Shown: positions 1 through 63,346, counted from the first letter of the stretch. The stretch is 64,000 nt of DNA from an uncultured Gemmatimonadaceae bacterium (GCA_963829055.1 CAWHHI010000006.1:192001-256000); one strand, 5' to 3'. The notes: a model not told the origin generated them from the sequence alone. Translations and numbers: made by a program.

Positions 1-309
1 TACATGGTGAACGAGCGGACGCACGAGATCGGCATTCGCATGGCGCTCGGCGCCGTCGGCGGCGACGTGTTAGGCATGGTCGTGCGGCAGACGCTGCGGC
101 TCGTCGTCATCGGCGCGGTGCTCGGGCTGGCCGGCGCGCTGGCACTCGGCCGCGCCCTCACGAGTCTCGTCTTCGAGGTGAAGCCGAGCGACCCGACGAC
201 GCTGGCGGTCGTGACGGTGCTGTTGGCGCTCGTCGCGCTGGCGGCGACGCTCGTGCCCGCGCTGCGGGCTACACGCGTGACGCCGCTGGTCGCTCTGCGC
301 CGGGACTAA
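1..309 (+). CDS. ABC transporter permease (ADOP/FtsX family), C-terminal fragment
   Basis: ERTHEIGIRMALGA motif, TM helices, end RATRVTPLVALRRD; 5' part lies outside the window. Confidence 0.9.
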   Translation, partial: YMVNERTHEIGIRMALGAVGGDVLGMVVRQTLRLVVIGAVLGLAGALALGRALTSLVFEVKPSDPTTLAVVTVLLALVALAATLVPALRATRVTPLVALRRD

Positions 310-353
310 ATAGTGTGGCAGGTTCCCGCGGGGACGCAGTAAGCTCCAGCACG

Positions 354-596
354 CATCCAGAACCGAGGGTGTGAACGGAAACGGCCGGAAACATCGGATC
401 GGGCGGATCCCAATGGACAGTCGGCCAACGAGCCGTGATGAGGAACGGCCTCCGGGACGAGTGCGCGAGGCCGTTCCCTTTTCAACCGGCCCCGGCTCCA
501 AGATCCATCCGGGTCGCGATGGGATCAGGCCGCTGTCAGTCGTTTCCGCCTGATCGGTTCACACTCTGGGTTCTGGATGTCGTGTCGAAGCGGTTC
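354..596 (+). repeat. Long imperfect inverted-repeat element, homologous to 13559-13710
   Basis: catccagaacc-gagggtgtgaac (354-376) pairs with gttcacactct-gggttctggatg (557-579); internal hairpin ggaacggcctc/gaggccgttcc followed by ctttt. Confidence 0.6.
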
Positions 597-728
597 GTCC
601 GGATGGTGTGCCGAAGCATTCCTCGGCGTCCTCTGCGGTGAAACGGCGTTGTTGTCTCGCATCGGGGCGGCGCGCGTGGTAACGTGACCCCGTGAGGGCG
701 CCCCTCGCGCCCTCGAAACGGGGGTACC

Positions 729-2503
729 ATGACGACCGATCGATCGACCGACGTCGGCGCGTTCCTCGACGCCCGCGAGTTTCTGCTCGCACACCGCGAC
801 CGATACGATCACGCGTACGCGCGATTTCCAGTGGCCGCGGCTCGAGCGCTTCAACTGGGCGCTCGACTACTTCGACGCCATGGCGCGCGGGAATGACCGG
901 CCAGCGCTCCGGATCGTCCGCGATGATGGCAGCGACCGCTCCTTCTCGTTCGCCGAGCTCTCGCGCCGCAGCAATCAGGTCGCCAACGCGCTCCGCGTCG
1001 CTCGGCGCCCGTCGCGGCGACCGACTGCTGCTCATGCTGCCGAACGTCGTGCAGACGTGGGAGACGATCCTCGCCTGCATGAAGCTCGGCGTCGTCGTGT
1101 ACCGGCGACGCCGCAGCTGACACCCCTGGACCTCGCGGACCGTTTCGAGCGCGGCGCGGTGCGCCACGTCGTGACCGACGGCGACGGCGCGCTCAAGTTC
1201 GCGACGCTGCCCGGCGACTACACGCGGCTCATCGTCGGCGTCGGATCTGCCGGGATGGACGCGATTCGAGACGCGCGCACGAGGTGCCTGACGCGTTCGA
1301 GCCGGACGGCGACACCGACGGCGAGCGATCCGACTGCTTCTCTACTTCACCTCGGGCACGACGGCGAAGCCGAAGCTCGTGCTGCACACGCACGCGAGCT
1401 ATCCGGTCGGGCATCTGTCCACGATGTACTGGATCGGCCTGCGCGAGGGCGACGTGCACTGGAACATCAGCTCGCCGGGTTGGGCCAAGCACGCGTGGAG
1501 CAGCGTCTTCGCGCCGTGGAACGCGGGCGCGACGATCTTCGTCTTCGACTACCAGCGCTTCGACGCGAAGCGCGTGCTCGACACGATCGTGCGCTGCGGC
1601 GTGACGACGCTCTGCGCGCCGCCCACCGTCTGGCGGATGCTGATCGGCGAGAATCTCGGCGACGTATCGCGTGGCGCTGCGCGAGGTCGCGAGCGCCGGC
1701 GAGCCGCTCAACCCCGAGGTCATCGAGCGCGTGCAGCACGCCTGGGGCCTAACGATTCGCGACGGCTACGGCCAGACCGAGACGACGGCGCAGGTCGGCA
1801 ACTCGCCCGGCCAGCCGGTGCACGCCGGGATCGATGGGACGCCCGCTGCCCGGCTACCGCATCGCGCTGCTCGATGCCGACGGCAGAGCCGGCCGACGAG
1901 GGTGAGATCGCGCTGCCGCTCACGGCGCTCGAGAGTGGCGGGCACCGCCGCTCGGTCTCATGGTCGGCTACCTCGACGACGAGTCGCGCAGCGGCGGCGC
2001 GATGTCGGGCGGCTACTACCGACACCGGCGACGTCGCCCAGCGCGACGCGGACGGCTACATCACCTACGTCGGTCGCGCGGACGACGTGTTCAAGAGCTC
2101 CGACTATCGCATCAGTCCGTTCGAGATCGAGAGCGCGCTGATCGAGCATGCGCTCGTGGCCGAGGCGGCGGTGGTGCCGAGCCCGGACGCGATGCGCCTG
2201 TCGGTGCCGAAGGCGTTCTGCGTGCTGCGCGGCGACGCGACACCGATCGCGCGAGGTGGCGCTCGAGATCTTCCGCTTCGTGCGCGAGCGCCTGCCGGCG
2301 TACAAGCGCGTTAGGCGCCTCGAGTTCGCGCGAGCTGCCGAAGACGATCTCCGGAAAGATCCGTCGCGTGGAGCTGCGGGCGCTCGAGCAGCGCCGTCAC
2401 GCGGCGGGCGAGCGAGGCGCAGCTGGAGTTCCGGGAGGAGGATTTCCCGGAGCTGCGCGACGCGAGATCCAGCGTGGCCGCGCAATCTCGGCGAGTGCCT
2501 TAG
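729..2503 (+). CDS. AMP-binding acyl-CoA synthetase (acetate/medium-chain CoA ligase), frameshifted in assembly
   Basis: YFTSGTTAKPK, DGYGQTET, TGD, YVGRADDVFKSSDYRISPFEIES, LPKTISGKIRR across several frames. Confidence 0.9.
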
Positions 2504-60716: not shown

Positions 60717-61931
60717 GTGCCTGGGCAGACCATCAGACGCACCTGGCAATCCGACCCGACGATCTACGCCCCCGCGAAGTACAAGCGTGCGTGCTCGTAC
60801 GACGCGTTTGTGCCCGATCCGCTCATGGGCATGCCGCTTCGCATCGACGCCGCGGTCGCAGGTCTCGTGTCCGAGGCCGAGCATGCGGTACGCACACTCA
60901 ACGAGAAGGCGCGACCCGCCCTTGCCCCGCTTGCTCGGCTACTCCTGAGAACCGAGGCGATCGCGTCCTCCAAAGTCGAGGGAATGCAACTCGGTGTGCG
61001 CCAGCTCGCGCGGGCTGAAGCGCGGGTGGAGTCCGGGCGCAAGGCGAGTGCGACGGCGATCGAGGTGCTCGCGAACGTCGATGCCATGTCGCTCGCGGTG
61101 GAAGAAGCGGCGGTCGTCGATCGCTTCGGCGTCGCGGAGATCATCGCCATCGATCGGCGGCTCATGCAGGGCGCGGAGAACAGCGGGATCGCCGGCAACA
61201 TTCGGACGCGCCAGAACTGGATCGGCGGGAACGATCACAACCCATGCGGCGCCGATTTCGTTCCGCCGCCGCCGGAGCACGTCGATGCGCTCCTCGCTGA
61301 TCTGTGCGAGGCGATCAACGACGACCGACTCCCGCCGATCGTCCAGGCAGCGCTCGTCCATGCGCAGTTCGAAACGATCCACCCATTCGACGACGGCAAC
61401 GGGCGAACGGGGCGCGCACTCATCCACGTGATCCTGCGACGACGTCGCGTGGCGGCAGAGTACCTGCCGCCAATCAGCGTTATGCTGGCAAGGGCGAAGG
61501 GACGCTACATCGATGGGCTCACCACCTTTCGCGGCAGCGACATTGGACCCTGGATCGAACAGGTTGCCAGCGCCGCGAGTGGTGCGGCGCACCTCGCCCA
61601 GGCCTATCTGCTGAAAGTCGAGGACCTGACCGCATCATGGCGCGAACGGCTAGCGGCATCGGCGGGCGCACCGCGCCGAGGCGCCGCGGCGTGGGCCGTG
61701 ATCGACGTCTTGCCGGCACACCCGATCATCACTGCTCCGGTCGCGACCGCCGCGACGGGTCGAGCCAAGGCGGCGGTCTATCAGGCCATCGAACAACTCG
61801 AAGCGGCGGGCGTTCTGCGTTCCGCTCTCCGAGTCTCGCAGAAACCAGGCGTGGGAGTCGACGGGACTTCTGGATCTATTGCCGGTCTCGAGGCGGGGCG
61901 GGTTGGCCCTCAGGATGAGATCGACGCCTGA
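60717..61931 (+). CDS. Fic family protein with C-terminal HTH
   Basis: EAIASSKVEG inhibitory motif, HAQFETIHPFDDGNGRTGR. Confidence 0.93.
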   Translation: MPGQTIRRTWQSDPTIYAPAKYKRACSYDAFVPDPLMGMPLRIDAAVAGLVSEAEHAVRTLNEKARPALAPLARLLLRTEAIASSKVEGMQLGVRQLARAEARVESGRKASATAIEVLANVDAMSLAVEEAAVVDRFGVAEIIAIDRRLMQGAENSGIAGNIRTRQNWIGGNDHNPCGADFVPPPPEHVDALLADLCEAINDDRLPPIVQAALVHAQFETIHPFDDGNGRTGRALIHVILRRRRVAAEYLPPISVMLARAKGRYIDGLTTFRGSDIGPWIEQVASAASGAAHLAQAYLLKVEDLTASWRERLAASAGAPRRGAAAWAVIDVLPAHPIITAPVATAATGRAKAAVYQAIEQLEAAGVLRSALRVSQKPGVGVDGTSGSIAGLEAGRVGPQDEIDA

Positions 61932-61954
61932 CGACGGCCTAACGATTGAGCGGC

Positions 61955-63041
61955 TTACGCCGCGCCGCTGGTGTCGATGCCGATCCCCGCCTCGCGCGCT
62001 CGCACGATGGCCTCGGCGCGCGAGGTCGCGCCGATCTTCCAGAAGATGTTGGTGACGTGATTGCGCACCGTCTTGTCGCTGATGCGCAGCCGCTCGGCGA
62101 TGTTGCCGTTGCCGAGCCCGCGCGCCACGAGCCCGAGGACTTCGGTCTCCCGGTCGGTGAGCTCGGGGAATGAGCCGGAAGCAACCGAGGCGTTAGGCTC
62201 ATCCGGGGCGAGGAACGCTTCGACTTCGGTAACGAACTCGTCGAACGCCGGCTCGCCCTCGAGCAGGATGTGGTTCCGACTCTCGAGAGACACGAGGCGC
62301 GCGTTCGGGATGAGCGCGGCGAGCCTGCGCCCCTCGTCGAACGGGATGCGCATGTCGCCCCGCGAGTGCAGGACGAGCGTGGGCGCCGTCACGAGAGGCG
62401 CCACGTCCCGCACGTCGAGCTGGCCGAAGGCGGCCATCATTCGCGCCGCGTTCTCGGGCGACGTCGACTCACGCTGCAGGTCATCGAACCAGCGGAACTG
62501 CTCCGGCGTGCCGTCCGGAAGGAAGAGGCTCGTGAATACGTGGCGGAACGCGGCATCCTTGCGTCCCCAGCCGACGCGTATCATGTCGATCAGCACGCGA
62601 AACTCTTCGAGCTGGGACGGCGTCAACCCGCGCTTCGCGTACCCGGTGGGGTAGCTGCCGTGGAGCACGAGAATGACTGACGCGCTCGGGGTGGCGGACC
62701 GTGTACGCGACGGCGATGGGCCCGCCCTGCGAGATGCCGAGGAGGGGAAAACGATCGAGCCCGGCGGCGTCGACCACCGCCTCGAGATCGCGCACCCACG
62801 CGTCGAGCGAGAACTCGTCGACGTCCCAGTCGGATAACCCACAGCCGCGCTCGTCGTAGCGCACGAGCCGCCGCTTGCGGGCGAGCCGCTCGAACAGCGG
62901 CCGCCAGACAGGCGTCCGCCAGTCGTACTCGACATGACTGAGCCAGTTCGCCGCCTTCACGAGCGGCGGGCCGGAGCCGACGGTGGCGTACGCGAGCCGG
63001 ACGCCGTCGCTGGCCTTACAGAAGCGGATCTGCTGTTGCAT
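61955..63041 (-). CDS. Alpha/beta hydrolase-LuxR HTH transcriptional regulator (copy B)
   Basis: Close paralog of 54784-55876; one frameshift near 62675. Confidence 0.92.
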
Positions 63042-63346
63042 AGGTCTCGTCGCCTGAGACGGCCGCGCGGTGATCTCGACCAGCTTACACCGTCGTCGCG
63101 GCCGTTGCCAGACTGCGGGGACGCTGCTGCGGTCCGGGCCGATCGCCTCACGTCCGCTGTGCGTGCTATTGCCAGATCTGGCTATAGTACCGGAAACGTG
63201 AATCGTAAGGCAGCGCCGCCGACCAGATACCTAACGTCACGCGGGACTTCGAGCCTAACGACTGGGTATCTTGGCCGCACTCTCCATGATCACTTCCACC
63301 AGCGGACTGACAGCGGATCTTGAAAACTCGCGCTAGTTTGAAACGC

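Follow-up and report, generated by a model that had tools for sequence, protein, structure and literature searches.

Why should one eight-letter word, CGTTAGGC (reverse complement GCCTAACG), recur more than fifty times in 64 kb of bacterial DNA? The question is raised by a stretch of 64,000 nucleotides from an uncultured Gemmatimonadaceae bacterium (GCA_963829055.1 CAWHHI010000006.1:192001-256000; G000:C6:192001-256000, where G000 is the source genome), which is called the window below. The octamer, hereafter the word, is non-palindromic, differing from its own reverse complement. Exact matching on both strands finds 53 copies in the window (29 plus, 24 minus), and the heptamer GTTAGGC occurs 57 times (32 plus, 25 minus), which agrees with the roughly 53 and 57 that the original prediction had counted by eye; every copy that it cited as an example is present. 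Among 100 dinucleotide-preserving shuffles the octamer averaged 0.86 copies with a maximum of 3 and the heptamer averaged 2.05, and no shuffle reached 53 or 57, respectively. We tentatively favor, at somewhat less than even confidence, the reading that the word is an uptake-sequence-like tag of self DNA that has spread by molecular drive.

The whole source genome (7,784,024 bases in 20 contigs, 66.7% G+C) holds 5,004 words, 2,547 plus and 2,457 minus, or one per 1.56 kb, and the balanced orientation predicted from the window thereby extends to the genome. By a composition model, the word is the most over-represented of all 8-mers with at least 200 copies (17.3-fold and 16.5-fold on the two strands), a genome-wide count having been proposed as a check. 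A maximal-order Markov expectation for 8-mers is uninformative for the word because its sub-words are equally enriched. That model ranks TGTCATCC/GGATGACA highest (323 and 337 copies, 2.0-fold), with ATTCCGAG/CTCGGAAT also high (466 and 443 copies, 1.7-fold), and these may be part of another dispersed repeat.

The first position of the word is C in 5,004 genomic copies, T in 435, G in 112 and A in 79, and its last is C in 5,004, T in 827, G in 428 and A in 132, while most inner one-letter variants are depleted to 0.03- to 0.7-fold (for example, CCTTAGGC 0.03-fold and CATTAGGC 0.09-fold). Judged from these counts, the specificity of a putative reader looks like Y-GTTAGG-Y. The flanks carry at most 0.13 bit of information at every position, and the word is therefore no part of a longer repeat; the flat flank logo of the genome shows none of the conserved outer sequence typical of repetitive extragenic palindromic (REP) or miniature inverted-repeat transposable element (MITE) repeats.

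Reading frames, codon cost and conservation

The source assembly is rich in insertions and deletions (indels). In the window, an acyl-CoA synthetase C-terminal motif (…EFAELPKTISGKIRR…, 2290-2400) is broken by an extra base near 2330, and contigs of four metagenomes share one-base differences from the assembly, for example, at 12302 (an indel), 15526 and 15532. Gene calls are therefore fragmented, and those based on open reading frames (ORFs) span only 67-74% of the genome. Because assembly frameshifts break up the ORF calls, the frame of each word was assigned by local six-frame codon statistics over 120 bases on each side, with the word itself excluded. Among the 2,273 words assigned in this way, 961 read nCG-TTA-GGC, 616 CCT-AAC, 401 nGC-CTA-ACG and 281 GTT-AGG. 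The two frames that would give a stop (TAG or TAA) hold only 7 words each, against 799 of 2,320 random positions. Basecalling error cannot know the reading frame, and this avoidance therefore demonstrates that the word is real DNA under purifying selection. No frame could be assigned to 2,729 words, and 2 more lay too near contig ends; the unassigned, partly noncoding share is alike for words (2,729 of 5,002) and random positions (2,680 of 5,000). In the window, 22 of the 53 words were assignable (14 nCG-TTA-GGC, 3 nGC-CTA-ACG, 3 GTT-AGG and 2 CCT-AAC), none of them stop-giving.

Called coding sequences contain 3,228 words, compared with 156 after synonymous shuffling within genes and 77 when codons are resampled from usage outside the word, an excess of 21- to 42-fold, and of all 2,792 TTA codons 1,287 (46%) lie inside a word. 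The word overrides codon preference as a DNA-level signal. The expectations that it would occupy several reading frames rather than one, use rare codons and survive a codon and dicodon control are all upheld, with four frames in use. Of 7,029 called genes, 423 close on a word, which supplies 232 of 877 TAA stops and 191 of 1,843 TAG stops; part of these gene ends may be spurious in this assembly. Likewise, the stops proposed in the window at 10127, 24618 and 60194 do close ORFs, whereas no ORF of at least 50 amino acids ends at the one proposed at 22013.

The indels and incomplete ORF cover might suggest that the word is an artifact of basecalling or assembly, or else a by-product of codon or dicodon usage. 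This reading is excluded: besides the stop-frame avoidance and the excess over synonymous nulls, all six congeners of the source genome are rich (2,501-5,112 words each, in assemblies of 260-1,170 contigs), and the contigs of named word-rich metagenome-assembled genomes (MAGs) carry names of the k141_ and NODE_ kinds, which we take to be naming styles of short-read assemblers. The species occurs, moreover, in 20 metagenome runs from 16 studies. Contigs from four independent metagenomes, each of a different study, span the word sites in window positions 6000-15999 at 97-99% identity, and among the 40 differences listed of 480 none falls inside a word, although this is cover and not a letter-by-letter proof. 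The presence of the word beyond this assembly, on which the original prediction depended, is thus established.

Comparison with related genomes shows that the words are kept in place and also turned over. For the congener G001, 369 kb were compared and 308 kb aligned to the source genome at 78.7% identity; in these alignments 116 words stand at the same place in both genomes, with 60 more found only in G001 and 68 only in the source genome. Conservation of the word is therefore 64%, against 20.4% for all 8-mers in the same alignments, which is the outcome of the check on positional conservation that had been proposed. Where the word is missing, the sequence most often found in its place is CGCTCGGC, in which Leu-Gly has its ordinary codons CTC-GGC. 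Of the 128 unshared sites, 36 differ at one letter and 92 at two to five, and words must therefore have been gained by several steps, sometimes changing amino acids. With G014, which belongs to another genus and is the densest genome (6,360 words in 5.1 Mb), 9 words are shared, 54 are found only there and 21 only in the source genome, and none of 36 words is shared with the word-poor G008. Triple-word arrangements recur at orthologous places across several named MAG species. Once present, words are thus retained far better than neighboring synonymous sites, with turnover at about steady state.

The individual copies in the window are listed in Table 1. An intergenic region at 2500-2900 contains, in addition, many short motifs of the AATCCTG type (…caatcctgacaatcctgtcc…, …caaatcctggccatcctgtc…) together with a caacgg/caacga run.

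Table 1. Copies of the word and of the bare heptamer in the window, with coding frame and state in aligned genomes where available
Feature	Position	Strand	Remarks
CGTTAGGC	1747..1754	-	no frame assigned
CGTTAGGC	2309..2316	+	within acyl-CoA synthetase-like C-terminal motif (K-R-V-R-R-L-E-F), beside assembly frameshift
CGTTAGGC	3973..3980	+	
CGTTAGGC	6070..6077	+	kept in G001
CGTTAGGC	6612..6619	+	aligned position in G001 without word
CGTTAGGC	7165..7172	+	nCG-TTA-GGC; kept in G001; CGTTGGGC in G003
CGTTAGGC	8419..8426	+	nCG-TTA-GGC; kept in G001; CGCTCGGC in G003
CGTTAGGC	9021..9028	-	
CGTTAGGC	10122..10129	-	supplies TAA closing ORF 9798-10127
CGTTAGGC	10995..11002	+	kept in G001
CGTTAGGC	11918..11925	-	nCG-TTA-GGC; kept in G001, G005
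CGTTAGGC	12189..12196	+	kept in G001, G005
CGTTAGGC	12982..12989	+	G001 and G005 without word
CGTTAGGC	14292..14299	+	CGTCAGGT in G005, CGTCAGAT in G001
CGTTAGGC	15981..15988	-	nCG-TTA-GGC; CTG-type Leu codon in G001, G005; word in G014
CGTTAGGC	16017..16024	-	nCG-TTA-GGC; 7 of 8 letters kept in G001, G005
CGTTAGGC	16482..16489	-	nCG-TTA-GGC; Leu codon CTC in G005, CTG in G001
CGTTAGGC	20284..20291	+	coding strand nGC-CTA-ACG; kept in G001, G005
CGTTAGGC	22011..22018	+	kept in G003; gene stop here not confirmed
CGTTAGGC	24237..24244	+	GTT-AGG; kept in G001, G003, G005
CGTTAGGC	24613..24620	+	supplies TAG closing ORF 24142-24618
CGTTAGGC	24785..24792	-	
CGTTAGGC	25942..25949	+	nCG-TTA-GGC
CGTTAGGC	31464..31471	-	nGC-CTA-ACG
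CGTTAGGC	32519..32526	+	nCG-TTA-GGC
CGTTAGGC	32894..32901	+	nCG-TTA-GGC
CGTTAGGC	33479..33486	+	coding strand CCT-AAC
CGTTAGGC	33976..33983	-	nCG-TTA-GGC
CGTTAGGC	35490..35497	-	
CGTTAGGC	36031..36038	-	
CGTTAGGC	36277..36284	-	
CGTTAGGC	36745..36752	-	nCG-TTA-GGC
CGTTAGGC	36931..36938	-	nCG-TTA-GGC
CGTTAGGC	37297..37304	+	
CGTTAGGC	37341..37348	+	pair with copy at 37297, unusually close
CGTTAGGC	37657..37664	-	GTT-AGG
CGTTAGGC	41716..41723	+	
CGTTAGGC	43053..43060	+	
CGTTAGGC	47308..47315	+	
CGTTAGGC	50661..50668	-	
CGTTAGGC	51399..51406	-	
CGTTAGGC	52990..52997	-	nCG-TTA-GGC
CGTTAGGC	53914..53921	-	
CGTTAGGC	54137..54144	+	complement supplies TAA closing minus-strand ORF 54139-54408
CGTTAGGC	54577..54584	+	
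CGTTAGGC	57244..57251	+	GTT-AGG
CGTTAGGC	57784..57791	-	nCG-TTA-GGC
CGTTAGGC	58330..58337	-	
CGTTAGGC	58760..58767	+	nGC-CTA-ACG
CGTTAGGC	60192..60199	+	complement supplies TAA closing minus-strand ORF 60194-60520
CGTTAGGC	61937..61944	-	
CGTTAGGC	62191..62198	+	CCT-AAC
CGTTAGGC	63253..63260	-	
GTTAGGC, no leading C	69..75	+	
GTTAGGC only	17790..17796	-	
GTTAGGC only	27233..27239	+	
GTTAGGC only	28839..28845	+	

Spacing, foreign DNA and taxonomic spread

The words of the source genome are spaced more evenly than random. Gaps below 50 bp number 30 against 160 expected, those of 50-150 bp 104 against 305, and those of 150-300 bp 319 against 422, while gaps of 600-1,200 bp (1,400 against 1,093) and 1,200-2,400 bp (1,417 against 1,236) are in excess; pooled, 134 gaps fall below 150 bp (465 expected) and 2,817 between 600 and 2,400 bp (2,329 expected). 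Orientation changes between adjacent words in 2,395 of 4,984 cases. When sorted by GC skew, the words are 453 plus and 406 minus above 0.01, and 640 plus and 659 minus below -0.01. On C16, which has a clear skew switch, the two arms give 58:42 and 47:53, and the replichore comparison called for by the original prediction thus demonstrates no real polarity, with 58:42 on one arm of C16 as the maximum. Separately, a perfect 55-nt hairpin at G000:C18:97494-97548 has inverted copies of the word as its ends, one of very few such pairs.

Stretches without any word are longest (31-50 kb) at three contig ends: C6:5440-55037, C11:1-46789 and C6:591808-623330, examined as loci L138-L140 (G000:C6:5001-56000), L141-L143 (G000:C11:1-48000) and L144-L145 (G000:C6:591001-623330). 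They carry a second set of housekeeping genes, namely chorismate synthase (aroC), ribulose-phosphate epimerase (rpe), FtsK, DAHP synthase, leucyl aminopeptidase (pepA), a TrpG-type amidotransferase and FolD, with 47-59% amino-acid identity to the main copies of the genome. These stretches are not mobile elements, and with a second gene set at such identity they must be DNA of another organism; they are probably chimeric contig ends, or else large pieces acquired very recently. Self and foreign DNA are thus cleanly told apart by the word in this genome. In practice it is a sensitive marker of foreign or chimeric DNA, and it exposed what are probably three misjoined contig ends.

Word counts across 401 genomes of the phylum Gemmatimonadota revealed high numbers in scattered genera of three families in one order. 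In family f1 the rich genera are g1, g9, g46, g49, g44, g45, g38, g41, g48 and g51, others being intermediate; elsewhere they are g77 (family f2) and g26 and g28 (family f3). No rich genome was found among those sampled from families f4-f12, and in most of the remaining genomes the word is rarer than a reversed control word (G013, G086, G125 and G204 enter the word-poor tallies only and support no conclusion). The word-rich G305, assembled in 4 contigs and 100% complete, may come from an isolate. Counts also differ sharply inside genus g46, in which G241, G298 and G402 hold 3,479-4,141 words and G294 (96% complete) holds 66, which offers a natural contrast for finding the reader through gene content. 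In 200 kb of the word-poor G008, no second word stood out as another dialect.

A scan of one genome per species in 185,579 species for three words in plus-minus-plus order with fixed gaps, a pattern chosen since integron arrays cannot match it, returned 37 loci. Nineteen belong to Gemmatimonadaceae or other Gemmatimonadota MAGs and 18 to MAGs of Chthoniobacterales, Spartobacteria or Verrucomicrobiae, and the scan found no locus outside these groups of Gemmatimonadota and Verrucomicrobiota. Five Verrucomicrobial genomes hold 2,494-3,510 words in 3.7-4.2 Mb, against 248-382 copies of the control word. The prediction of a lineage-specific word consequently fails, as the word is patchy over three Gemmatimonadota families and also fills Chthoniobacterales. 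There its usual form is TCGTTAGGC: of 212 words in the 18 loci of Chthoniobacterales, 90% have T at -1, a share that is only 20-31% in six rich genomes of Gemmatimonadota. The flanks in Chthoniobacterales are A-rich, and in one genome the word is mostly preceded by ACT. The core is thus common to both phyla, and the edges differ as dialects. On the Verrucomicrobial contig G420:C1 the word is found in 59 plus and 37 minus copies. The first 30 kb of this contig (L152-L153, G420:C1:1-30000) have a single word, compared with about 8 per 10 kb beyond, and are probably an island or foreign DNA.

Three word-dense viral contigs were found in a scan of IMG/VR. L119 encodes a terminase, portal, major head protein and holin, and its 15.2 kb hold 19 words, of which 15 are preceded by T; L129 encodes an integrase and a replication initiator and has 21 words in 16.4 kb (16 plus, 5 minus); L133 encodes a portal protein and has 14 words in 20.3 kb (13 plus, 1 minus). 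All three carry the word at host-like density and in the host-type dialect, and their strand bias has no consistent relation to gene sense. Scans of viral sequences with the three-word pattern gave no match, at a sensitivity that is very low for genomes of phage size.

The integron core site and the search for a reader

The original prediction could not match the word to a described signal, but its spelling is that of the core in integron attC recombination sites. PMC3053210 gives this core as GTTRRRY and the inverse core as RYYYAAC, and the spelling of the word fits the former, with Y as the tolerated last letter. All eight letters agree with the R' of attC sites from cassette arrays of Gemmatimonadota, those of the source genome included. 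The word is therefore an exact integron R box with one letter added, a likeness that chance would give about one time in tens of thousands. Word-poor relatives have few copies, which fall together on single contigs, on one strand and 500-650 bp apart; each is the R' of an attC site of about 95 nt that has the inverse core CCTAAC at its opposite end. Loci L001-L006 (G027:C95, C80 and C43; G025:C3; G029:C113) are large chromosomal cassette arrays with highly uniform attC sites. The source genome has an integron of its own, with IntI at C20:208041-208958 on the minus strand (265.7 bits against a cut-off of 265) and, beside it at about 188-207 kb of C20, a cassette array with the same R', the attC sites lying on the 3' side of IntI. 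Two inverted GTTAGGC copies 20 bp apart adjoin the end of the IntI gene, and a similar sequence occurs again at C20:185473.

More than 99% of the words in the source genome are nevertheless not attC sites. A search for the inverse core found CTAAC upstream of 112 words, compared with 115 for the control taken downstream. An attC-like hairpin context surrounds only 37 of 5,002 words, clustered in few places with 14 on C20. A paired RYYYAAC inverse core within an imperfect palindrome of 57-141 bp in a same-strand array, the arrangement typical of attC, was not seen for the words of the genome. IntI exceeds the cut-off in 24 of 41 relatives, word-rich and word-poor alike, and in four of the five word-rich Chthoniobacterales genomes; two rich genomes, G002 (84% complete) and G004 (92% complete), gave no IntI match. 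As described in PMC12614218, citing Loot et al. 2024, integrases can insert cassettes at genomic attG sites and can act on transformation-borne single strands.

Family profiles were run over the same 41 relatives, 8 of them word-rich, and those of IntI, RecC, ComEC, ComP_DUS, AddB, Vsr and ComEA showed no positive association with richness and identified no reader protein. A tblastn search of 6,856 proteins of the source genome against 176 kb of Chthoniobacterales loci returned only ordinary conserved proteins. The octamer occurs in 478 papers, as a primer or construct sequence in the matches listed, and the literature search did not find it as a genome feature; the heptamer was not found in the main text of PMC4670013.

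What could spread the word

Under the favored reading, a directional, sequence-specific process acting on double-stranded resident DNA would write the word and keep it in genes and spacers. A surface or periplasmic reader of the transformation machinery would prefer DNA fragments bearing the word; alleles with it would be taken up and recombined more often, and it would spread by molecular drive wherever protein coding tolerates it, up to saturation at about one copy per fragment-sized stretch. The bias in uptake is the driving step that we infer. Uptake genes are present in the source genome, including ComEC (247 bits), DprA (234 bits), a secretin, PilB/PilT-type ATPases and five pilin genes. 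The likeness to the DNA uptake sequence (DUS) of Neisseriaceae lies in a copy number in the thousands, a density near one per kb and an even split between the strands, with copies placed in and between genes, common to related species with dialects and scarce in foreign DNA, with competence genes present. Like the uptake signal sequence (USS) of Pasteurellaceae, the word is a short core held in permissive frames of ordinary genes, where it brings in unusual codons and costs some changes of amino acid. USS spacing is even, and that of the word is likewise more even than random. USS differs in having AT-rich segments flanking its core, for which the word of the source genome has no extended consensus, and in occurring in unrelated taxa. 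HIP1 of cyanobacteria, an octamer at about one per kb across genes and without known function, is spread at similar density but is palindromic. The original interpretation of a strand-balanced DNA-level signal resembling DUS and USS, and unlike Chi or the FtsK-orienting polar sequences (KOPS), therefore stands, except that the word is neither lineage-specific nor unmatched.

Several points weigh against an uptake tag. DUS are read by the minor pilin ComP, and the ComP_DUS profile (PF16732) has no match in the 8 rich genomes and weak matches in 6 of 41, all word-poor or intermediate. ComEA-like matches are weak and without contrast between rich and poor genomes, none reaching E<=1e-5 in G000, G003 and G004, and the proposed phylogenetic profile against ComEA and ComP genes consequently shows no association with richness in the 41 relatives. 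ComEC is near-universal (40 of 41) and therefore does not separate rich from poor. An intact, divergent pilin at C11:105384 was considered as the reader and rejected, being genus-specific and unrelated to richness. Inverted pairs that could form terminators are frequent in DUS and rare for the word, with only 4 (-+) and 5 (+-) less than 50 bp apart in the source genome. DUS and USS are vertically inherited and drift into dialects, whereas here an identical core, equal to the integron core site, is found in two phyla without core drift, and uptake alone leaves that identity unexplained. The bona fide phage contig L119 and the two other viral contigs are likewise difficult, and uptake drive accounts for their words only if all three are long-resident prophages. 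We know of no naturally transformable organism in the Gemmatimonadota or Chthoniobacterales groups, and the literature search found nothing linking Gemmatimonadota, Gemmatimonas or Chthoniobacter to uptake sequences.

The integron machinery itself might read the words if IntI, an IntI-derived protein or a partner protein binds double-stranded copies of the R box; the chromosome may then be a field of attG-like landing or exchange sites, or the tag may couple transformation-borne single-stranded DNA to cassette capture. A core specificity of IntI kept across phyla would explain the same word in both, and the R' ends in the arrays of word-poor relatives and beside the genome's own IntI, the shared final Y, the integrase of the rich Chthoniobacterales and the described use of attG sites and transformed single strands agree with such a role. 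We regard it as unlikely, however, since IntI does not track richness, nearly all words lack inverse core and hairpin, no scattered single cassettes were seen beside words (the few hairpin contexts being clustered), the RRR positions are not free as GTTRRRY allows (CGTTGGGC 0.43-fold, CGTTAAGC and CGTTAGAC each 0.16-fold), and we can name no way in which binding by an integrase would give rise to lone words at synonymous positions. A chromosome-organizing or DNA-tracking protein, whose sites selection holds at regular intervals, would suit the deficit of very short and very long gaps, the high positional conservation with recurring triple-word arrangements, the host dialect on phage or prophage contigs and the failure to find a canonical uptake receptor. 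Yet no candidate protein was found, 5,000 weakly selected sites would be hard to maintain in the face of the rare codons that they impose, turnover between genera is fast (with G014, 9 words are shared and 75 are not), and the function would need to be dispensable in G294, which makes this quite unlikely.

Biased mismatch repair or short-patch gene conversion that corrects near-matches to the word, a larger-scale counterpart of very-short-patch repair, with every resident replicon drifting toward the word, would account for chromosome and phage or prophage contigs carrying the word alike, for the strong depletion of one-letter variants and for word-free foreign DNA. It is very unlikely all the same: Vsr (PF03852) is found in none of the 8 rich genomes and in 4 poor ones, known repair biases produce at most about a twofold excess against the 20- to 40-fold seen here, many gains need two to five changes including amino-acid ones, and even spacing is not predicted. 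The word might also be a Chi-like signal, restraining a helicase-nuclease and labeling self DNA for repair by recombination. Chi, KOPS and the architecture-imparting sequences (AIMS) are, like the word, short, non-palindromic and over-represented in the core genome, and the enriched, strand-biased phage contigs L133 and L129 and the weak co-orientation with GC skew on C16 point the same way. Such a signal is highly improbable here, given balanced orientation without replication-linked polarity, a phage strand bias inconsistent with gene sense, both orientations on the Verrucomicrobial contig G420:C1, RecC (PF04257) in none of the 8 rich genomes and 1 of 41 overall, and AddB-type proteins in none of the 8, the Gram-positive AddB model and AdnAB not having been searched separately.

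The match to the integron core ties the word to the origin of attC sites and cassettes and to whatever else recognizes them. It is conceivable, though quite unlikely, that an integron R box was adopted as a chromosome-wide tag in two unrelated soil phyla through one mobile reader of fixed specificity, perhaps a receptor for uptake, a protein derived from an integrase or some new self-recognition factor. If so, the word would define a DNA-exchange community across phyla in which a single set of eight letters serves transformation, cassette capture and the discrimination of self from non-self, and resident phages would have to spell it in the host dialect. To our knowledge, genome-wide uptake-type words have been known only in Neisseriaceae and Pasteurellaceae for about thirty years. 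A 2025 preprint on uptake sequences (10.1101/2025.10.24.684340) likewise covers only these two families. A third case, if true, would mean that such tags are not an oddity of two animal-commensal families, and it would be one of independent origin, in abundant and largely uncultured soil bacteria in which no ComP-type receptor was found. Two features make the case testable, one being that two phyla have the word in different dialects and the other that richness is patchy, down to the level of a single genus.

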